Under the pieces are notes generated by a model. It saw nothing but the letters and a program-made list of their open reading frames with translations. It did no database searches and was not told where the DNA came from. A program made the position numbers and the translations under genes. DNA of 64,000 bases from an uncultured Actinomycetes bacterium. Lineage in GTDB: Bacteria; Actinomycetota; UBA4738; HRBIN12. Each line of letters begins with the position of its first letter. Position 1 is the stretch's first letter. Below are positions 9,577-19,427 of this stretch, piece after piece. The stretch covers positions 93,255 through 157,254 of the forward strand of contig CAVOYV010000008.1 of NCBI GenBank assembly GCA_963700855.1, in the 5' to 3' direction.

Positions 9577-11715
9577 TCAGATCGTGCGGGCGATCTCCTC
9601 GACCTCGTAGGCCTCGATCAGGTCGCCCTCCTTGAGGTCCTGGAAGTTCGCCAGCCCGATCCCACACTCGTAGCCGTCGCGGACCTCGGCGACGTCGTCC
9701 TTGAACCGACGGAGCGATCCGATCTTGCCGTCGTAGACCACGACCCCGTCGCGGACCAGGCGAGCGGTCGCGTTGCGCCGGATCGTGCCCGAGCGGATGT
9801 ACGACCCCGCGATCACGCCGAGCTTCGGCACCCGGAACATCTGGCGGACCTCGGCCTCCCCCAGGATCTTCTCGCGCTCCTCGGGCTTGAGCATGCCCGA
9901 CAGCGCCGCCTTGATGTCGTCGATCGCGTCGTAGATCACGCGGTACACGCGGATGTCGACGCCTTCCTTCTCTGCGAGCTCGCGCGCGCTCGCGTTCGGC
10001 CGGACGTTGAACCCGACGATGATCGCGTCGGAGGCCATCGCCAGCTGGACGTCGTTCTCGGTGATCCCACCGGCCCCGCCACGGACGATGTTCACCTTCA
10101 CCTCGTCCTGCGGGAGCTTGAGCAGGGAGTCCTCGAGGGCCTGGAGCGACCCCTGGACGTCAGCCTTCACGATCAGGTTGAGCTCGGCGACGTCGGCTCG
10201 AGCGACCTGGCGCATCAGGTCCTGCAGCGTCGCGCGACGGCTCGTCACCAGCTCGGCGGCGCGCGTCTTGGCCTCGCGCTCTTCGGCGATATGACGGGCT
10301 TCGCGCTCGTCGCCCACCTCGCGGAAGTCGTCGCTCGCGCTCGGCACGTGGCTCCAGCCGAGGATCTGCACGGGCTTCGACGGGCCTGCGTGCTCCACCG
10401 GCTGACCGTTCTCGTCCTGCATCGCACGGATCCGGCAGTACGCGGTCCCGGCGACGAGCGCGTCGCCCACCGACAGGGTCCCCTTCTGGACCAGCACCGT
10501 GGCGACCGGGCCGCGGCCCTTGTCGAGGTGCGCCTCGAGCACCGTGCCCCGAGAACGTCCGCTGGGGTCTCCCTTGAGGTCTTGCAGATCGGCCACGACG
10601 AGGATCGTGTCGAGCAACGAATCCAGGTTGAGCTGCGCCTTCGCCGACACGTCGACGAACTCGAAGTCGCCGCCCCACTCGGCGGGCACGACTCCGTGCT
10701 CGACCATCTGGGTGCGGACCCGGTTCGGGTCGGCGTCCTCCTTGTCCACCTTGTTCACCGCGACCACGATCGGCACGTTCGCTGCCTTCGCATGGTCGAG
10801 CGCCTCGACGGTCTGGGGCATGACGCCGTCGTCGGCAGCGACCACGAGGACCGCGATGTCGGTCACGCTCGCCCCACGGGCGCGCATCGCCGTGAACGCC
10901 TCGTGACCCGGGGTATCGATGAAGGTGATGTCGCGATCGCCCGCGTGCGCCTGGTACGCGCCGATGTGCTGGGTGATCCCGCCGAACTCCCCCGCGACCA
11001 CGTTCGTGGAGCGGATGGCATCCAGCAGCTTCGTCTTCCCGTGGTCCACGTGCCCCATGATCGTGACCACCGGGGCACGCGGCTTCAGGTTCGCCTCGTC
11101 GATCTCCTCGGCAGCCTCCTCGGCCTTGAGTTCGTCCTCGAGCCCCACGATGTCGACTCCGTACCCGAGTTGGTCGGCGACCAGCTCGATCGCGCCGTCG
11201 GACAGCGACGTGGTGGCGGTCACCATCTCACCCGCCAGGAACAGCACCTTCACGACGTCTGCCGGTGACCGGTCGAGCTTCTCGGCGAGGACCTGCGGGG
11301 TCGCGCCGTGGACGACCTGGAGCACTGGACGCGAGGGTGCCGCGGGAGCCGGCTTCGAGGGGGCGGGCTTGGGCGAGACTTCGACGGGAGCGGCGTCGGG
11401 TGGTGGAGGCTCCGCGGCCGGGGCGGGAGCGGGCTCGGAGGGGGTCGCCTCCGCAGGCGCCTCGGCCTTCGGCTTCGCGGCTGGCTTCGGCTTCGGCTTG
11501 GGCTTTGGCTTGCGGGGCTGGGTCGGCGGCTCGAGCACCTCCCGCGGCTTCGCCGGCGCGGTCGTCGCCTTGCCGCCCGACGCGCGCAGGCGCGGGACCA
11601 TGTCCTCGGGCACGCTGGACGAGGCGGACTTGCCCTCCGCCCCCATCTGGGCGAGCGCCTCCAGCAGCTCCCTGCTGGTGACGCCCAGCTCCTTGGCCAG
11701 CTCGTGAACCCTCAC
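9577..11715 (-). CDS. infB: translation initiation factor IF-2
   Basis: 712-aa ORF with a Pro/Ala-rich N-terminal region and GTPase motifs [13 protein letters not shown] and NKVD. Conserved C-terminal domains. Confidence 0.98.
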
Positions 11716-11984
11716 GTGTCCCTCAGCATCCTTTCGAGAAGCGTCCTTAGCCTACCGACTTCCCCCGGGCCCACACCCGTGCGCAGCGCCCTCGCGACGG
11801 CGCCGGTACGGAGCGCCCGATCGACGCACGCCGGGTCCCGGTGGACGTACGCGCCGCGACCGAGCGCCACCGCTCCTTCATCGACCTCGACCGTCCCGCC
11901 GGGGTCGCGCACCAGTCGCAGGAGCGCCACCTTCGGCGCCTTGCCCCGGCAACCGACACAGGTGCGCTCGGGGGCGGCGCCCAC
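11712..11984 (-). CDS. ylxR: YlxR/DUF448 family RNA-binding protein
   Basis: 90-aa ORF with [20 protein letters not shown] and GRGAYVH. It sits between nusA and infB. GTG start. Confidence 0.9.
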
Positions 11985-11985
11985 G

Positions 11986-13029
11986 TCAGCCCTCCGCGGG
12001 AGCCTCCGCGGCCTGCGTCTCGGACTTGATGTCGATCCGCCAGCCGGTGAGCCGCGCGGCGAGCCGCGCGTTCTGCCCCTCCTTGCCGATCGCGAGCGAC
12101 AGCTGGTAGTCGGGCACGATCACCTGCGCCGTCGACGTGTCCGGGTCGATCCGAACCTCCTTGACCTTCGCCGGCTGCAGCGCGTTCGCGACCAGTTCGG
12201 CAGGGTTGTCCGACCACGGTACGACGTCGATCTTCTCGCCGCGGAGCTCGGTCACGACGTTGCGCACGCGCGAGCCCTTCGGCCCGACGCAGGCGCCGAC
12301 CGGGTCGACCGCCGGCTCGTAGGAGAACACCGCGATCTTCGACCGGTGACCCGGCTCGCGCGCGACGCCCTTGATCTCGACGACGCCGTCCTCGATCTCG
12401 GGCACCTCGAGCTCGAACAGCTTCTTCAGCAGGCCGGGGTGGGTCCGTGACACGACGATCTGCGGTCCCTTCGCCCCCCGACGGACCTCGGTGATGAACG
12501 CCTTCAGACGCTCGCCGTTGCGGTAGGGCTCCGACGGCACCTGCTCGGCCTGCGGCAGGAGCGCCTCGACCTTGCCCAGATCGAGCAGCGTGTAACGGCG
12601 CTCGGACTGCTGGACGATGCCGGTGACGATGTCGCCCTCGCGGCCGGCGAACTCCTCGTACGTCATCTCGCGCTCGGCGTCGCGGAGCTTCTGGAAGATG
12701 ACCTGCTTCGCGGTCTGCGCGCCGATCCGCCCCTTGAAGTCCTCGGCGACCTCGACCTCCTCTTCGGAGCGGACCTCCATCACGAGGCTCTCGCCGTCCT
12801 CGGACTCGACCTCGTCGAGCACCTGCTGGAACATCCGCAGATCGCCGGTCTCGGGGTCGATCTCGGCGCGGAACCCCACGAAGTCGTCGTCGGCGGTGGG
12901 GTTCTCCTGCTTCCAGGCGGACTTGTAGGCGGCGGCCATCGCCTCCTCCAGGCCCTGGAGGATGGTCTCGAACGCGATGCCCTTCTCACGCTCCAGTTCA
13001 CGGAGCGCCGCGATCATCTCTGCGTTCAT
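11986..13029 (-). CDS. nusA: transcription termination/antitermination factor NusA
   Basis: 347-aa ORF with S1 and KH domains ([39 protein letters not shown]). Confidence 0.97.
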
Positions 13030-13490
13030 GCCCTGCTCCCCTTCAGCTCGGCGTCCCAGTCGACGACCGTCCTCGCCGAGGCGACGTCCGCGAGCGCGAT
13101 CATGCGCCGCGCGCCGTCCACCTCCACGGTGACGGTCGAGTCGTCGGCCGCGACGAGCGTGCCGGCGTGCACCCGCGCGCCCTCGACGGGCTCGGCCGTC
13201 TTCACCTTCACCCGCGTCCCCACGAACCGCCGGAAGTGCTCCGGCGTCCGCAGCGGACGCTCGATCCCGGGCGAACTGACCTCCAGCTCGTAGCGCCCAC
13301 GACCGAAATCCTCGAGATCCAGGCGCCGCGACACCTTCTCGGACAACGCCGAGATCGCGTCGAGGTCCATGTCCTCGCGGTCCACCGTCACGCGGAGGAT
13401 CTGCCGTCCCGCCTCACGCCGGAACCCGACCTCCACGAGCTCGAAACCGGCCCCTTCGACGACGGGACGGATCAGCGTCTCCGCGTCCAC
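13026..13490 (-). CDS. rimP: ribosome maturation factor RimP
   Basis: 154-aa ORF with LEVSSPGIERPL. GTG start preceded by GGGAGGTGG. 4-nt overlap with nusA. Confidence 0.92.
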   Translation of the reverse strand: MDAETLIRPVVEGAGFELVEVGFRREAGRQILRVTVDREDMDLDAISALSEKVSRRLDLEDFGRGRYELEVSSPGIERPLRTPEHFRRFVGTRVKVKTAEPVEGARVHAGTLVAADDSTVTVEVDGARRMIALADVASARTVVDWDAELKGSRA

Positions 13491-13504
13491 CCGACCCCAC
13501 CTCC

Positions 13505-13532
13505 CGAAGAAAAAGGTGGGCGCGCGCCCACC
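13505..13532 (-). terminator. intrinsic terminator/attenuator in the rimP-nusA-infB leader
   Basis: The minus strand reads GGTGGGCGCGCGCCCACC followed by TTTTTCTTC. It lies after the stop of the proS-like gene (13593) and ends just before the rimP RBS. Confidence 0.6.
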
Positions 13533-13592
13533 TCCGGCTCGTGCAACGGTACGTCTGAAGGGAGTATAGCGGAGGGCGTCCCGCGGAGCCGT

Positions 13593-14813
13593 TCAGGGGA
13601 GCCGATCGAGGCCCGCGAGGATCTCCTCGGAGAGCTCGGACAGGGCCACCTGGGCGGTGTCGCCGGTGTGGCGGAGCGTCAGATCGCCCACGCCGTCGGC
13701 GACACCGCGGGTTCCCACCGTCGCGCGCAGCGGCGACCCGAGCAGGTCGGCATCCGCGAACTTCCGCCCCGCCCGCTCGGCGCGGTCATCGAGGTAGACC
13801 GTGGCGCCGCCGGCCTCCAGCGCGTCGTGGAGATCGGCCGCGACGGCCGCTGCCTGCGCATCGTCGGGGGTCGCCAGGACGATCGTGACCTCGAAGGGAG
13901 CGAGCGCTCGCGGCCAGACCGGGCCCCTGCCGTCGGCGCACCGGACGGCGGTCGCGCGGACGAGCGCACGCGCGTCGATCTCGGCGCCGCGGGTCACGGC
14001 GATCGCCCGGCGGGTGGTCAGGCGTCCGCCACACGCCGGGCACGGATCGCCCTCGCGCGCCGGGACCAGGTCGGCCCAGGTGTCCACCTCGACATCTCGC
14101 CCGATCACCAGCCCTGTGACGTGGTGATCGTCCAGGTTCGCACCCGCCGCCCACCACGGGCGCGCACGGACCCCGAGGTCCGCGATCACCATCGCGTCCG
14201 GGTGGTCGTGCGGCCCCATGAACCCCTTCGACAGCTCGAACCGGGAGAACCCTTCCTCGTCGAGCCGCGCGAGAGCCGCCGGCGCCACGACCCGGGCCAG
14301 CTTCGCCTCGTCGACGGCCCGCTCCCCAGGAGCGATCGCGAGCACGAGCCGTCCGTCGGCCTCGTAGGCCATCGTCTTGAGGTTCGCCTCCACGGGCAGG
14401 CCGAGCGCCTCGGCTGCCGTCGCCATCGTGGTCGCTCCGGGGGTGGGCACGACGTCGAGCGGCACGACCGGATCGGCCGGCACCGCCTCCGGCGGACGTC
14501 GCGAGGCGGCGGCCAGCGTCGCCGCGTCCCCGCAGGCCTCACACACGAGCAACCGCAGGTCGCCCTCCTCGAGCGTCACGACCCGCACGATGCCCGCGTG
14601 GTCGCGGACGTCGACGACGTCGAGACCGACCGCACCGGGGTCCTGGAGCGTCTCCGCCCGCGCGAGGATCAACTCGCCGAGCGGCGTGGGCTCGAAGGAT
14701 CCCTCGGCACCCCGGGTCAGGTACCCGCCGCGAACGAGCAGCCGGTCGGCCTGCGCCCGCACGCCGGCCGGCGCGTCGCGCAGCGTCGAGATCGGGAACG
14801 CGGTCGCACGCAT
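13593..14813 (-). CDS. ProRS-derived protein lacking most of the class II catalytic core (INS editing domain + anticodon-binding domain retained)
   Basis: 406-aa ORF in the proS position upstream of rimP. The N-terminus MRATAFPISTLRDAPAG...LLVRGGY matches the bacterial ProRS start. INS-like LKTMAYEADGRLVLAIAPGERAVDEAKL, KGFMGP and AAGANLDDHHVTGLVIGRD are present. The anticodon-binding-like WPRALAPFEVTIV...LDDRAERAGRKFADADLLGSP is present. Nothing resembles the motif 1/2/3 regions. Confidence 0.7.
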   Translation of the reverse strand: MRATAFPISTLRDAPAGVRAQADRLLVRGGYLTRGAEGSFEPTPLGELILARAETLQDPGAVGLDVVDVRDHAGIVRVVTLEEGDLRLLVCEACGDAATLAAASRRPPEAVPADPVVPLDVVPTPGATTMATAAEALGLPVEANLKTMAYEADGRLVLAIAPGERAVDEAKLARVVAPAALARLDEEGFSRFELSKGFMGPHDHPDAMVIADLGVRARPWWAAGANLDDHHVTGLVIGRDVEVDTWADLVPAREGDPCPACGGRLTTRRAIAVTRGAEIDARALVRATAVRCADGRGPVWPRALAPFEVTIVLATPDDAQAAAVAADLHDALEAGGATVYLDDRAERAGRKFADADLLGSPLRATVGTRGVADGVGDLTLRHTGDTAQVALSELSEEILAGLDRLP

Positions 14814-14877
14814 CGGTTCGGCACGCTACCAGCCGTCGTTGACGTGCCCGGCGGGCCCGTGCCACCATCGCCGTCCG

Positions 14878-14922
14878 ATGTCGGCACGGCAGAACCGGTG
14901 GTGGTGGTCCCAGGGCTCGTGA
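14878..14922 (+). CDS. trpL: trp leader peptide (14 aa, three consecutive Trp codons)
   Basis: ATG TCG GCA CGG CAG AAC CGG TGG TGG TGG TCC CAG GGC TCG TGA encodes MSARQNRWWWSQGS. It lies 97 nt upstream of trpE and is followed by a terminator-like hairpin. There is no SD. A possible TTGACG(14839)-18-CACCAT promoter would make it leaderless. Confidence 0.75.
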   Translation: MSARQNRWWWSQGS

Positions 14923-14965
14923 GCCCGGGTGCCACCGCGCGACGCCGCCGACCCGCACCACCCAC

Positions 14966-15000
14966 GAGCCCCGGACCTCCGGTCCGGGGTTCTCGCGTTT
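14966..15000 (+). terminator. trp attenuator terminator hairpin
   Basis: GAGCCCCGGACC-TCC-GGTCCGGGGTTC (12-bp stem including one G-U) followed by TCGCGTTT. It lies between trpL and the trpE RBS (GAGGATGAGGAG). Confidence 0.6.
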
Positions 15001-15018
15001 CCGAGAGGATGAGGAGTC

Positions 15019-16503
15019 ATGGAGCTGCAGGTTCGACCCGACCGGGACGTCTTCGAGCGTCTCGCGGCCGACTGGCCGCTCGTCCCGGTGTGGGCGGAGC
15101 TCCTCGCCGACGTCGCGACCCCCGTCGCTCTGTTCGACGCCGTCGCAGGCGCCGGCCCCGGGATCCTCCTCGAGTCGGTCGAGCGCTCCGAGCGCTGGGG
15201 CCGGTACTCGTTCGTCGCGGGCGATCCCGCGGGGATCCTCGTCGTCGACCACGACGGTGCCCGGCTGGAGGACGTCGTGCGGGACCTCCCGCCGGTCCCC
15301 GACGCGGGACCCCGCGAGGCCCTCACCCTGTTCGCCCAGGCCCTCCGCGGCCCACGGCTCCCCGACCTCCCGCCGCTCGCCGGCGGGCTGATGGGGATGT
15401 TGGCCTATGAGGCCGCCGGGCTCCTCGACGGCCACCCGGCGCCGTCACCCGACGAGGCCCCGTGCCCGCCGATCTCGCTCCTCGTGATCGACCGCGCGGT
15501 GGTCTTCGACCACTGGCGCCAGCGGATCGTGCTAGTCGCGCACGCCTCGGCCGGCGGCTACGACACCGCGGTGGTGGCGCTCGACGAGCTGGCCAGCAAG
15601 GTCGCCGGTGCCGTCGCGCCACCGATCGCCCAGATGGGCACGCCGGTGCCTGCCGAAGGCGATCCGAACATGCCAGACCAGCGCTACCGCGACACGGTCG
15701 CGACGTTCAAGGAGCACATCCTCGCGGGGGACATCTTCCAAGGCGTGCCTTCGCGAGGGGTCTCGTTCCCGGCGCCCGAGGGCGGATTCCCCATCTACCG
15801 GCGCCTGCGGGTCACCAACCCGGCCCCGTACATGTTCTACCTCCGCCTCGGGGGCATGGAGCTCGCGGGCTCCTCCCCCGAGCCGCTCGTCCGCGTCGAG
15901 GGCCGTCGTGTCTCGACCCGTCCGATCGCCGGTACCCGCCCGCGCGGCCAGACCGAGGTCCGCGACCGCCTCCTCGAGCACGAACTGCTCGCCGACCCGA
16001 AGGAGCAAGCTGAGCACGCGATGCTCGTCGATCTCGCCCGCAACGACCTCGGGCGCGTCTGCGTCCCCGGCTCCGTCCATCCGACCGAGCTGATGCAGGT
16101 CGAGCGGTTCACGAAGGTGATGCACATCGTCTCGACCGTCGAGGGCGAGCTCCGCGAGGACCAGCACGCGCTCGACGCGCTCGCGGTCACCTTCCCCGCC
16201 GGCACCGTCACCGGCGCGCCGAAGCGGCGGGCGATGGAGCTGATCGCCGAGCACGAGCCGACCCCGCGCGGCCCCTACGCCGGCGCGGTCGGCTACCTCA
16301 CCTTCGCCGGCGACCTCGACTTCTGCATCACGATCCGCACCGCCGTCGTCACCGACGGCGTCGTCAGCGTCCAAGCCGGCGCCGGCGTCGTCGCCGACTC
16401 CGACCCCGAGACCGAGCTCCGCGAGACGAAGGCGAAGGCCGCCGGGCTGATCCCCGCCGTCGCCCCCGCGCATCCATCTGCTGGCAGGGAGACCAACCGA
16501 TGA
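15019..16503 (+). CDS. trpE: anthranilate synthase component I
   Basis: 494-aa ORF with LLESVE (Trp feedback site region), GSSPE, PIAGTRPRG, and GAPKRRAMELI...RGPYAGAVGY. Confidence 0.92.
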   Translation: MELQVRPDRDVFERLAADWPLVPVWAELLADVATPVALFDAVAGAGPGILLESVERSERWGRYSFVAGDPAGILVVDHDGARLEDVVRDLPPVPDAGPREALTLFAQALRGPRLPDLPPLAGGLMGMLAYEAAGLLDGHPAPSPDEAPCPPISLLVIDRAVVFDHWRQRIVLVAHASAGGYDTAVVALDELASKVAGAVAPPIAQMGTPVPAEGDPNMPDQRYRDTVATFKEHILAGDIFQGVPSRGVSFPAPEGGFPIYRRLRVTNPAPYMFYLRLGGMELAGSSPEPLVRVEGRRVSTRPIAGTRPRGQTEVRDRLLEHELLADPKEQAEHAMLVDLARNDLGRVCVPGSVHPTELMQVERFTKVMHIVSTVEGELREDQHALDALAVTFPAGTVTGAPKRRAMELIAEHEPTPRGPYAGAVGYLTFAGDLDFCITIRTAVVTDGVVSVQAGAGVVADSDPETELRETKAKAAGLIPAVAPAHPSAGRETNR

Positions 16504-17066
16504 TCCTCGTCGTCGACCACTACGACTCGTTCACCTACAACCTCGTCCAGCTCGTCGAGTCGCTCGGTCGCGAGACGGTCGTGGTGAAGTCCGACGAGAA
16601 GCCCGCCGACGAGCTCGTCGCGCTCGCGCCCGAGGCCGTGATCTTGTCGCCCGGCCCCGGCCACCCCCGGGACGCCGGGTGCTTCACCGAGCTGCTCGCC
16701 ACCCTGCCGCCCGCGACCCCGGTGCTCGGCGTGTGCCTCGGGCACCAGGCGCTCGGCCTGCAGTGCGGCGGCACGGTGGACCGCGCCGCGCCCGTCCACG
16801 GGAAGGCTTCGCTCGTCTACCACGACGGGCGTGGCATCCTCGCGGGCGTCACGGTCCCCTTCGAGGCCGGCCGCTACCACTCGCTCGTCGTCGAGCGCGA
16901 CGACCTTCCCGCCGAACTCGAGCTCACCGCCTGGACCGAAGACGGCCTCGTGATGGCCGCCCAGCACCGCGAACACCCCCGCTTCGGCGTCCAGTTCCAC
17001 CCCGAGAGCATCCTCACCCCCGAGGGTCCGAGGATCGTCGAGAACTTCCTGCGCCTCGCGAGCTGA
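16500..17066 (+). CDS. trpG: anthranilate synthase component II / glutamine amidotransferase
   Basis: 188-aa ORF with ILVVDHYDSFTYNLV, GVCLGHQ and FGVQFHPES. 4-nt overlap with trpE. Confidence 0.92.
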   Translation: MILVVDHYDSFTYNLVQLVESLGRETVVVKSDEKPADELVALAPEAVILSPGPGHPRDAGCFTELLATLPPATPVLGVCLGHQALGLQCGGTVDRAAPVHGKASLVYHDGRGILAGVTVPFEAGRYHSLVVERDDLPAELELTAWTEDGLVMAAQHREHPRFGVQFHPESILTPEGPRIVENFLRLAS

Positions 17067-17303
17067 CGGCCACCTTCACCGCCAGCCCTCGACGCGACCG
17101 ATCTGGTACCACCATGGCTCCGTGGGTACTCGTTCCGAGAGCAGCTAGTAGTTCTGGTCGAACGTGTGAACGTCGTGCTCTTCAAGAGAGCTCCAGCGAG
17201 ACTTTCCGTCCGTCAGAGCCTCGCACATCGTCTGGTCGGGGTCATTCCTGGGCACATCGTGCTGTTCACGAAGTGTTGATCCGTGATCGGATTACGAGCG
17301 TCG

Positions 17304-17843
17304 CTATCCAGCGGCAGCAGCGCCCATCGCGCCCACCCTCTGAAGGTGCGCGAAGTTGATAGCCCACACGAGGCCCAGCGCTAGGGGGAGGTCCACACTC
17401 TCGGCGATGTCGACGGGGTAGTTCCGCTTGAGCGGGAGAGTCGTCAGGTCCATCTTGACTACAGCCATGTCGTCCTCAAGCACTGCGTAGCCCTGCTTGA
17501 CGCCAGCGTCCCTGACGACAGTCCACGCACCGCCGCTGGCGAGAGCAAGCTCCATGTACTTCTTGCCCAGTACAGAGTTGATCTTCAGGTTCCCGGCCGG
17601 CGTGCCGTCGGCATTCGTGTACTCGATCTTGGACTTGGTGACCCCCTTCATCAGAGCCTTCATCACCACCGATCCGCTGGCGTTCAGGATTTCGGCAGCA
17701 CGCTTCTTCCCGACGACGGCGAATACCGGTTCCTCGGCGAAGGATTCATCCTCGAAGATCGACAGATCGCGCTGCAGCAGGGCCGAGCTCTTGACGTAGT
17801 ACCGGCTCCAGCCAACTTCTGTGTTGTCCAATGCGTCACTCAC
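17304..17843 (-). CDS. LURP-one-related / tubby C-terminal-like (DUF567-like) protein, in a lower-GC islet
   Basis: ORF 17304..18119. The start is set at GTG 17843, which is preceded by AAGGGGAG. The 179-aa product has repeating beta-strand motifs and a C-terminal KRNYPVDIAESVDLPLALGLVWAINF resembling the LOR family signature. GC is visibly lower than in the flanks. Confidence 0.5.
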   Translation of the reverse strand: MSDALDNTEVGWSRYYVKSSALLQRDLSIFEDESFAEEPVFAVVGKKRAAEILNASGSVVMKALMKGVTKSKIEYTNADGTPAGNLKINSVLGKKYMELALASGGAWTVVRDAGVKQGYAVLEDDMAVVKMDLTTLPLKRNYPVDIAESVDLPLALGLVWAINFAHLQRVGAMGAAAAG

Positions 17844-17872
17844 GGGTTCTCCCCTTCTGACGTCGCTGGAGA

Positions 17873-18214
17873 CTACTCCGTCACCCCGAAGGGGCACGGA
17901 CCCGGGTCGCTCTCGTCGTCGCAGGTGAAGCGGATCGACACGTCCGGATGACCGGCCTCGACGATGTCGAAGGGCATGCCGTACGAGGGCGGGCCGAAGT
18001 CGGGATGGAGCAGCGTCCCGCGCGCGTGCATCGAGCGCTTCCAGACGTCGCTCCGCGGATGCAGCGGCAGGTTCGAGACGTCGAGATGCCAGACGTTCGA
18101 CGCGGGGAGGACGCGGCACTCGGTGCCGGGGACCGGGCGGGCTGCGGCGGGCGTCAGCCCGGCGGCGATCAACGCGACGATCGCGACCACGAGGGCAACC
18201 CTGGGAACACGCAC
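17873..18214 (-). CDS. secreted hypothetical protein (signal peptide), probably a 5' fragment truncated at the islet boundary
   Basis: 113-aa ORF MRVPRVALVVAIVALIAAGLTPAAARP..., with NVWHLDVSNLPLHPRSD, LHPDFGPPSYGMPF and DDESDPGPCPF. It ends abruptly where the GC content drops. Confidence 0.45.
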   Translation of the reverse strand: MRVPRVALVVAIVALIAAGLTPAAARPVPGTECRVLPASNVWHLDVSNLPLHPRSDVWKRSMHARGTLLHPDFGPPSYGMPFDIVEAGHPDVSIRFTCDDESDPGPCPFGVTE

Positions 18215-18257
18215 CTGTTCGTCATCGGCATCCGGGGCCGCTACGGTTGACCCTCAC

Positions 18258-19427
18258 ATGGCCCATCGAGGCGCGACCCGCGGGATCATCGAGACGACCC
18301 CGACCGCCCTGCTGGTGGCCCTGATCGCGGTCCGCGTCCTGGTCGTCGGCGTGGTGATCGTCGACGCGGGCCGTCACGGCGTCGACGACGCCGTCGTGCT
18401 GCACGCCCACGCGGTCGCGTCGTCGCCCGCCTCGCCGTGGAAGGGGTTCCCGGTCGCCTCGATGCCGGTCGAGACCGCGCTCATGCACGTGGTCGGGGGC
18501 GACTCCCCGACCTCGACCGCGGTCCGCATGGCACTGCTCGCGTTCGTCGCGGACCTGGCGGTGTTCGTCGGGGTCGGGTTCGCGTGGGGGCGCCGGGCGG
18601 CGGGCACCTACCTGCTGCTGGCGCTCCCCCTGCTGCCGATGCTCTACCGGCGGTTCGACCTGGTCTCGGTGGCGCTCGTGACGTGGGGCGCGGCGCTGTT
18701 CACCCGGCGCGGCGACGGCGAGGTCGGCAGCCCGGGCATCGCGTTCGGGCTCGCGATCTGGACGAAGCTCTGGCCGGTCGTCCTCCTGCCCGTGCTGTTC
18801 CTGCGGCGGGCGCAGCGGTCGCTGATCGCGACGGGGGGGCTCGTGCTCTTGGGCGGCCTCGCGTGGTTCTTCATCGGGGGCAAGAAGGCGCCCTTCCAGG
18901 TGCTCACGCTCCGTGACGCGGTCGGGTGGTCGGTGGAGGGGACGGTGGGCAGCGCGCTGCGCGCGTTCGGCCTCGCCGGGCCGACGAACACCGACGGGAA
19001 CACCGTGCGGTTCGGGACGGTGCCGGGGCTCGCGGAGCCGCTGCTGTTCCTCGTGCTGGTCGCGCTGCTCGGGCTCGTGTGGTGGGGGGCGTCGCGGGAA
19101 CCCCGGCGCGATCCGTTCGGGGCGACCTCGCTCGCCGCGGTCGCCGCGCTCCTCGTGTGCGCGCCGCTCGTGGCCGCGCAGTACGTGGCCTGGCTCGTGC
19201 CGTGGACCGCGGTCGCGTTCGAGGCGGACGAGGCCGAACGCGAGGTGGCCGTCGCCGCGACCCTCGCGATCGTCCTCACCGGGCTGACGCAGCTGGTGAC
19301 GGTGGGCGAGGGATGGGTCGACGCGTGGCTCCTGTTCGCGCGGAACCTCACGCTCGTAGCGGTGGTCGGGCTGTGGCTCGTGCCGGCGCTGCTCCCGAGG
19401 CGCCCCGAGGCCGCGCACGCCGCCTGA
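18258..19427 (+). CDS. polytopic membrane protein, GT-C/DUF2029-like glycosyltransferase candidate
   Basis: ORF 17964..19427. The start is set at ATG 18258 because the upstream part is antisense to the previous gene. About 10 hydrophobic helices. Function assigned only by overall resemblance. Confidence 0.4.
   Translation: MAHRGATRGIIETTPTALLVALIAVRVLVVGVVIVDAGRHGVDDAVVLHAHAVASSPASPWKGFPVASMPVETALMHVVGGDSPTSTAVRMALLAFVADLAVFVGVGFAWGRRAAGTYLLLALPLLPMLYRRFDLVSVALVTWGAALFTRRGDGEVGSPGIAFGLAIWTKLWPVVLLPVLFLRRAQRSLIATGGLVLLGGLAWFFIGGKKAPFQVLTLRDAVGWSVEGTVGSALRAFGLAGPTNTDGNTVRFGTVPGLAEPLLFLVLVALLGLVWWGASREPRRDPFGATSLAAVAALLVCAPLVAAQYVAWLVPWTAVAFEADEAEREVAVAATLAIVLTGLTQLVTVGEGWVDAWLLFARNLTLVAVVGLWLVPALLPRRPEAAHAA

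Follow-up and report, generated by a model that had tools for sequence, protein, structure and literature searches.

Within a 64,000-nucleotide stretch of DNA from an uncultured Actinomycetes bacterium (contig CAVOYV010000008.1, positions 93,255 to 157,254; the whole stretch is referred to here as the window), the place of proS, the gene for prolyl-tRNA synthetase (ProRS), is taken by a gene for a 406-amino-acid protein that we refer to as X. Judged from its sequence, X is a derivative of bacterial-type ProRS that lacks the aminoacylation core and retains the INS editing domain and the anticodon-binding domain (ABD). The reading that we favor, with moderate confidence, is that X is a free-standing, anticodon-guided trans-editing factor for Ala-tRNAPro, which would proofread the products of another ProRS that has no INS.

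To define what has been kept and what has been lost, we compared X with domain models, with solved ProRS structures, and with full-length relatives. The X open reading frame (ORF) starts with ATG and has no internal stops, and all of the peptides quoted from it in an earlier note on this DNA (the original prediction) are present in the uninterrupted 406-residue translation. Its GC content by codon position (GC1, 0.81; GC2, 0.54; GC3, 0.90) matches what a true coding sequence would show in a genome of ~72% GC. The high-GC window also yields many long spurious antisense ORFs, such as one of 747 amino acids at 13167-15410 on the plus strand, which runs across X. A Pfam scan identified tRNA_edit (PF04073) at residues 124 to 233 (E = 1.3e-12) and HGTP_anticodon (PF03129) at residues 309 to 399 (E = 2.2e-13) and gave no match in X to the class II core, tRNA-synt_2b (PF00587), even at E ≤ 1; intact motifs 1 to 3 were not found. 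X also fell below the NCBIfam equivalog cutoffs for proS, with piecewise matches to both models (NF006625 and TIGR00409; 206.9 versus 558 bits and 134.7 versus 306.7 bits). Against solved ProRS structures, X aligned as three blocks (X residues 1-57, 85-274, and 284-399 with ProRS residues 9-65, 226-418, and 457-574, respectively), and alignments to full-length relatives revealed two in-frame deletions, one of ~140 amino acids that removes motifs 1 and 2 and one of ~30 amino acids that removes motif 3. Short remnant strands persist. Thus, the claim that X is ProRS derived without an aminoacylation core, with the motif 1/2 stretch replaced and the motif 3 region reduced, was confirmed. Because motifs 2 and 3 are absent, X should be unable to act as a proline-tRNA ligase, and both prolyl-adenylate formation and tRNAPro charging by X are predicted to be absent. 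The features of X are as follows (AF2, AlphaFold2; pLDDT, predicted local distance difference test; dN/dS, ratio of nonsynonymous to synonymous substitution rates):

13593-14813, minus strand: X, ProRS derived, 406 amino acids (stop codon at 13593-13595)
14643-14813, minus strand: residues 1-57, kept ProRS N-terminal segment (MRAT..TLRDAPAG..LLVRGGY) up to deletion 1; aligns with ProRS 9-65; pLDDT 87-95
14454-14642, minus strand: residues 58-120, deletion junction 1, remnant core β-strands, and linker to INS; alignments and AF2 strands 66-71, 74-80, and 86-91
14532-14543, minus strand: CxxC (C91, C94), within residues 58-120
14064-14453, minus strand: residues 121-250, INS editing domain (Pfam tRNA_edit span, 14115-14444); Pfam, alignment, and dN/dS 0.17-0.19
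14442-14444, minus strand: T124 of INS
14415-14417, minus strand: A133 of INS (E. coli L266)
14376-14378, minus strand: K146 of INS (E. coli K279)
14211-14225, minus strand: GFMGP, residues 197-201 of INS
14178-14180, minus strand: D212 of INS (E. coli D350)
14121-14123, minus strand: H231 of INS (E. coli H369)
13944-14063, minus strand: residues 251-290, post-INS remnant and deletion junction 2 (motif 3 gone, "AIAVTRGAEIDARAL" left); alignments and dN/dS 0.16-0.53
14031-14042, minus strand: CPAC (C258, C261), within residues 251-290
13596-13943, minus strand: residues 291-406, ABD (Pfam HGTP_anticodon span, 13617-13889); dN/dS 0.08-0.24

We then considered the residues on which editing and anticodon recognition depend, using E. 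coli ProRS (sequence from NC_000913.3) as the reference. The equivalents of E. coli T257, K279, D350, and H369 do not vary in the alignment, and neither do the glycine and proline of the GxxxP loop; this is true of X, of the other truncated proteins described below, and of one degenerate-core relative. K279A is the standard editing-dead mutant and abolishes editing, H369 is the conserved gatekeeper against deacylation of Pro-tRNAPro, and L266 tunes the preference between Ala and Ser (PMC3973320; bioRxiv 10.1101/2020.09.11.293571). Throughout the X clade, alanine (Ala133) stands at the L266 position, a hint that the pocket may be slightly larger. In the ABD of X, virtually all positions that never vary among canonical relatives (DDR…G.KF.DADL.G.P) have been kept. 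Conservation of these residues, together with the PF04073 and PF03129 matches, agrees with the proposal in the original prediction that INS and ABD were kept. At the base of INS, X also carries a CxxC…CPxC quartet (C91, C94, C258, and C261) that is near-invariant in canonical, degenerate-core, and truncated relatives and is absent from E. coli ProRS; this quartet is probably a structural metal (zinc) site.

An AlphaFold2 model of X, built from a 64-row alignment that included full-length ProRS sequences, had a mean pLDDT of 94.9 and a predicted template modeling score (pTM) of 0.85, without low-confidence segments. In this model, the remnant strands (residues 66-71, 74-80, 86-91, and 264-275) form a small sheet between INS and ABD. 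The best matches to the model in the Protein Data Bank by Foldseek were bacterial ProRS structures (E. faecalis 2j3l; E = 1e-34, query TM = 0.83), suggesting that the placement of INS relative to ABD resembles that of an intact ProRS.

X lies in a conserved actinobacterial gene block with the order cdsA, dxr, rseP, a two-component pair, ispG … trpG, trpE, X, rimP, nusA, ylxR, infB, DUF503, rbfA, nrnA, truB, and ribF. Two related uncultured lineages, L041 (NusA 92% and TrpE 85% identical to those of the window) and L002 (NusA 85% and TrpE 70% identical), have the same synteny, including the trpE/trpG insertion, and carry a canonical proS of ~569 amino acids between trpE and rimP. Each of these two proS genes is interrupted solely by one single-base C/G homopolymer indel (at 5960-6004 in L002 and at about 8960-9015 in L041), and these indels are long-read assembly errors. 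X therefore sits in the proS slot, as had been claimed, and since it is the positional orthologue of a normal proS, conversion of a synthetase in situ, the origin suggested in the original prediction, is the most parsimonious explanation. A Gaiellales-type ProRS, P0092, likewise comes after ispG.

The X gene is maintained across a clade of ten clusters (at 90% identity) from JGI, Logan, ENA, and NCBI, whose proteins are 73 to 98% identical. Seven of the ten are 405 to 407 amino acids long; the other three are shorter (276 to 381 amino acids) and look like probable fragments. In precomputed Pfam assignments, all ten have PF04073 and PF03129 only, and rimP follows the X orthologues wherever flanking DNA exists. 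All five X genes for which DNA was available (those of the window, L004, L001, L036, and L037) are intact, and their 10 pairwise dN/dS values (Nei-Gojobori) all lie between 0.18 and 0.36. By region, dN/dS was 0.17 to 0.19 for INS, 0.08 to 0.24 for the ABD, which is the most conserved part of X within the clade, and 0.16 to 0.53 for the remnant segments. Among neighboring genes, nusA, infB, trpE, and trpG gave 0.03 to 0.11 and rimP gave 0.25. The original prediction had allowed that relatives might hold full-length copies and that this one might be decaying; instead, the survey of relatives found the same two deletions across the X clade in ORFs of 405 to 407 amino acids, with dN/dS values that give no sign of decay. 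Because X is under purifying selection, simple decay does not account for it.

Identity comparisons indicate how fast X has changed. X is 77% identical between the window and L001, against 93% for TrpE, and is 38% identical to the ProRS of L041, against 85% for TrpE, while the canonical ProRSs of L041 and L002 are 70% identical, against 74% for TrpE. X thus changed extensively as the core was lost and has since been held by purifying selection, at a weaker constraint. As a separate observation, the synonymous divergence (dS) of X (0.64 to 0.73) is consistently above that of the adjacent rimP (0.13 to 0.45) in the same genome pairs (window, L001, L036, and L037); weaker codon-usage constraint, a local mutation effect, and recombination are possible explanations.

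Proteins with the same architecture exist outside the X clade. We scanned 1.84 billion representatives with HMMER and analyzed the best 150 matches, among which P0144, P0162, P0184, P0188, P0200, P0205, P0169, and P0189 (377 to 419 amino acids) match X end to end. The alignment and coverage table show that these P0144-type proteins carry both of the X deletions. One truncated cluster contains HEY5984226.1 ("YbaK/EbsC family protein [Anaerolineales bacterium]"), which lies in an unrelated gene context, and the P0144 cluster is not adjacent to rimP. In a neighbor-joining tree of INS plus ABD, the truncated proteins are not monophyletic: P0144 is nearest to full-length P0025 and the fragment P0150, with which it has indels in common, P0189 is nearest to P0195, and X is nearest to P0011. 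This non-monophyly suggests repeated origins, for which a distance tree is weak evidence.

Among the same 150 matches, 114 are at least 480 amino acids long; motifs 2 and 3 are canonical or near canonical in 25 of these and both degenerate in 89, a share that is inflated in part, since fast evolvers form more clusters at 50% identity and the X query has no core to score. Most of the nearest relatives of X of ~520 to 560 amino acids fall in the degenerate set, which retains K279 (88 of 89), H369 (89 of 89), and the ABD motif. By Pfam, tRNA_edit and HGTP_anticodon were each found in 89/89 and tRNA-synt_2b in 22/89; in the canonical controls, all three domains were found in 25/25. Members of the degenerate set include an Anaerolineae "proline--tRNA ligase," a Clostridiales "hypothetical protein," and WP_165988958.1 from the cultured Streptomyces sp. 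YIM 98790. The last, a 556-amino-acid "YbaK/EbsC family protein" (L024; WTLH01000163.1, 6230-7900), occupies the proS slot (dxr, rseP, … rimP, nusA, ylxR, infB). It has lost part of the motif 1 region and has degenerate motifs 2 and 3, so that it looks like an intermediate stage; this strain would offer a tractable organism for testing the idea of a retired synthetase. The original prediction had set X apart from known INS proteins; however, the INS-plus-ABD architecture is not unique to the proS slot of the window, as same-deletion and degenerate-core proteins are already in the databases, annotated as "YbaK/EbsC family protein" or "prolyl-tRNA synthetase."

Several candidates were rejected. 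P0018 and P0028 (412-413 amino acids) were considered as intermediates; P0028 belongs to an ordinary proS that a 1-nucleotide homopolymer error has broken in two, and P0018, which has the same starting Met, may be similar. L012 and L021 (Omnitrophota and Bdellovibrionales), which appeared as full-coverage matches, have only the ABD in common with X. The proS genes on the megaplasmids of S. cattleya and Streptomyces sp. BHT-5-2 are canonical.

The favored reading can be set out as a mechanism. The class II core would have been excised in place from a bacterial-type ProRS, leaving X unable to activate proline or charge tRNA, and the small β-sheet remnant would hold INS and ABD in roughly the arrangement seen in ProRS. 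INS has no intrinsic tRNA specificity and relies on the ABD of ProRS, which reads G35/G36 ~70 Å away (PMC3973320). The ABD of X would likewise bind the tRNAPro anticodon at G35/G36, and the CCA end of the bound tRNA would reach the INS pocket, where Ala-tRNAPro would be hydrolyzed and H231 would spare Pro-tRNAPro. Since the L266 equivalent is Ala, Ser-tRNAPro may be a further substrate. An INS-less charging ProRS would be encoded elsewhere in the genome, as this reading requires. Redundancy of that kind would permit one copy to be retired, and bacterial-type and archaeal/eukaryote-type ProRS do coexist in Streptomycetaceae (PMC10404621) and in Bacillus thuringiensis (PMC11229370).

Several observations weigh against this proofreading role. 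No second ProRS was found in the 64-kb window: tblastn with three full-length bacterial-type ProRSs matched X only, and tblastn with Thermus thermophilus ProRS (a query 477/477 identical to 1h4q) gave no match. Motif 1, which forms the dimer interface, is gone, so X is probably no longer a class II dimer, and its quaternary structure and tRNA geometry may differ from those of ProRS. X evolves at roughly 3 times the rate expected of a canonical ProRS; constraint is therefore relaxed, and the function may have shifted. In addition, the high confidence of the AlphaFold2 model comes partly from the full-length ProRS rows in its alignment. Beyond the window, a scan of genome contigs with X listed the metagenome-assembled genome (MAG) of P0005 (CAVVOG01, MFD09779.bin.1.329) and ABD-only matches to INS-less ProRSs of other phyla, the genome of the window itself not being among the matches listed, and among the matches listed for metagenome contigs was one partial X-clade contig. 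E-type ProRS genes were confirmed in Streptomyces and Embleya records; the best 120 matches of the E-type search were all from Streptomycetaceae, at identities of at least 82%, and the X lineage was not among the matches listed. For scale, the NusA of the window is 53% identical to a Streptomyces NusA.

Among the other explanations, the one we take most seriously, though we consider it unlikely, is that X is an active deacylase with a changed substrate, acting on Ser, Cys, or non-protein amino acids (e.g., azetidine-2-carboxylate) attached to tRNAPro, or on Pro-tRNAPro as a regulatory sink, rather than on Ala-tRNAPro. The Ala133 found across the X clade fits this idea, since L266A in the E. 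coli INS shifts editing from Ala to Ser, weakening the former and strengthening the latter (bioRxiv 10.1101/2020.09.11.293571), and so does the strong acceleration of the sequence after core loss. The gatekeeper H231, the catalytic Lys, and the GxxxP loop are nonetheless unchanged, and sequence alone does not separate this explanation from Ala-tRNAPro proofreading. It is distinctly improbable, in our estimate, that X is a noncatalytic binder of tRNAPro (a sensor, chaperone, sequestering factor, or scaffold for editing factors) that keeps INS for structure only. There are other synthetase paralogues that no longer catalyze and serve as regulators instead (PMC5388404 mentions HisZ), and the ABD is the best-conserved part of X; even so, the INS catalytic residues are invariant in very divergent truncated and degenerate-core relatives, and the dN/dS of INS is as low as that of the ABD. 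Little weight can be given to X being a functionless remnant in slow decay, tolerated since another ProRS took over. Although its dN/dS (0.25) exceeds that of its neighbors (0.03 to 0.11) and the remnant segments are the least constrained (up to 0.53), five genes that have diverged to 73% amino acid identity, at a dS of about 0.65 to 0.7, contain no frameshifts or stops, and every dN/dS value is below 0.4. The functional residues, moreover, have been retained, and lineages unrelated to one another have arrived at the same end state.

The retained N-terminal 57 residues and core remnant strands, which are confidently modeled, would also suit one subunit of a split ProRS, in which a separate catalytic core docks on the remnant strands and restores aminoacylation. 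This is very improbable: when the missing core region, taken from the enzyme of the sister lineage, was used as a query, no match to it, and no core-only protein, was found on the 1.65-Mb or 237-kb X contigs among the 120 matches listed (to 59% identity), and the 64-kb window has no core-only ORF. The short matches that were checked on long contigs proved to be normal proS genes split by frameshifts; P0434, a long-contig match considered as a separate core, is a normal proS of another MAG, in the slot and split in this way. Databases contain numerous spurious "short ProRS" proteins that homopolymer errors have created, and the majority of the matches of this search look like products of such errors. 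Long-read assemblies of related lineages do carry such frameshifts in proS, which might raise the suspicion that the X deletions are themselves artifacts of assembly or gene calling. We give this almost no credence, as the deletions are in frame and the same ORF of 405 to 407 amino acids came from independent JGI, Logan, ENA, and NCBI assemblies.

Comparison with known systems helps to place X. It resembles bacterial-type (P-type) ProS (NF006625/TIGR00409) in its 40 to 44% identity over the common regions, its slot upstream of rimP-nusA-infB, its INS and ABD domains, its editing residues, and its overall INS-ABD geometry, whereas it differs in the deletion of motifs 1, 2, and 3, the absence of a tRNA-synt_2b match, and its scores below the equivalog cutoffs. 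Free-standing INS-superfamily proteins are single-domain proteins of about 150 to 170 amino acids. X has the tRNA_edit fold of two of them, ProXp-ala and YbaK, with the signature Lys, His, and GxxxP (K146, H231, and G197-P201; residues per bioRxiv 10.1101/2020.09.11.293571), and its presumed job, clearing mischarged tRNAPro in trans, is the same (PMC3973320). In contrast to these single-domain proteins, X has 406 residues with a complete ProRS ABD and core remnants, and its score against the YbaK equivalog (TIGR00011) is 16 bits, versus a cutoff of 153. ProXp-ala recognizes the acceptor stem, and YbaK by itself shows no specificity for a tRNA (PMC3973320); because X, unlike either, has the complete ABD, it should read the anticodon.

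A parallel is found in crenarchaea, where ThrRS-ed, a Ser-tRNA(Thr) hydrolase, partners with ThrRS-cat as an editing-only synthetase paralogue that acts in trans (PMC3592468). X would be similar in being a synthetase paralogue that has lost aminoacylation and kept editing, but the two differ in synthetase family and in domain of life, and their editing folds are unrelated. The match of X to the Ser-tRNA(Thr) hydrolase model NF011500 is weak and confined to the ABD (E = 0.015; 14 bits versus a cutoff of 362), so that on sequence ThrRS-ed is an analogue of X and not a member of its family. The truncated ProRSx of Streptomyces, of about 200 amino acids, has only the ABD and is encoded beside a gene for a mistranslating tRNAProX (PMC10404621). 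Both are bacterial-type ProRS genes of actinomycetes that have been truncated in nature with the ABD kept; unlike ProRSx, X keeps INS and has 406 residues, and no tRNA gene was found in the 64-kb window. WP_165988958.1 and HEY5984226.1, of which no characterization was found, are derived from ProRS like X, with INS and ABD intact and the core degenerate or lost, and the YIM 98790 gene is also in the proS slot. The 556-residue WP_165988958.1 differs in that its core is recognizable, though degenerate; HEY5984226.1 (404 amino acids, from an Anaerolineales MAG) carries both deletions of X, yet its gene neighborhood is unrelated and it belongs to a separate ProRS lineage. The nearest published items to X are thus the single-domain ProXp-ala and YbaK, ThrRS-ed, and the ~200-amino-acid, ABD-only ProRSx (PMC10404621). 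In a full-text literature search, no account was found of a protein that derives from ProRS and has INS and ABD without the core, and exact-sequence look-ups of X and P0126 found no record.

X may be a trans-editing factor of the INS superfamily whose architecture, which would read the anticodon, is new and whose evolutionary origin is clear. A broader proposal, which we regard as evenly balanced between right and wrong, is that bacterial-type ProRS genes repeatedly retire into anticodon-guided tRNAPro proofreaders: with charging taken over by another ProRS, the core would decay and then be excised, while INS, ABD, and the remnant persist because they are selected. X would stand at the end of that route, its core excised completely and in place within the proS slot, and would correspond in bacteria to the archaeal pair ThrRS-cat/ThrRS-ed; a large undescribed class would lie under the labels "YbaK/EbsC family protein" and "prolyl-tRNA synthetase." Should X prove to be an active deacylase, it offers a natural experiment in which ProRS editing is split from aminoacylation with the ABD retained, and the question left open in PMC3973320, how anticodon recognition ~70 Å away directs the INS site, becomes testable. 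An anticodon-reading member would then join the tRNAPro trans-editing factors, of which the characterized ones read the acceptor stem or nothing, and X would document a way from synthetase to proofreader that can be taken repeatedly in different phyla. X-like sequences are already public under uninformative or wrong names; because several sources annotate them as "prolyl-tRNA synthetase," genome-based inferences about the set of aminoacyl-tRNA synthetases, or about how complete a MAG is, can be wrong for these lineages.

Around X, scans for Rfam families, tRNAs, and promoters or terminators found nothing. The genes that flank X are as follows:

13026-13490, minus strand: rimP, 102 nucleotides downstream of X
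11986-13029, minus strand: nusA
11712-11984, minus strand: ylxR
9577-11715, minus strand: infB
15019-16503, plus strand: trpE-like, divergent from X; synteny common to full-length-proS lineages
16500-17066, plus strand: trpG-like, divergent from X; synteny common to full-length-proS lineages

The N-terminal region of IF2, encoded by infB, is a long low-complexity stretch rich in Pro, Ala, and Lys. On the other side of X, GC content falls to 0.61-0.62 at 17000-18120, against about 0.72-0.75 in the surroundings. This low-GC stretch holds an ORF of 271 amino acids without a Pfam match (17304-18119, minus strand), which adjoins a weakly GT87-like membrane protein (17964-19427, plus strand). Gene content in the interval between ispG and trpG varies among the window, L001, L002, and L041, marking a variable spot that possibly contains acquired DNA. 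Finally, P0035, a 655-amino-acid protein on a 214-kb contig, has ProRS domains fused to RimP_N and RimP_C and is either a real proS-rimP fusion or the product of a stop codon lost in a long-read assembly.

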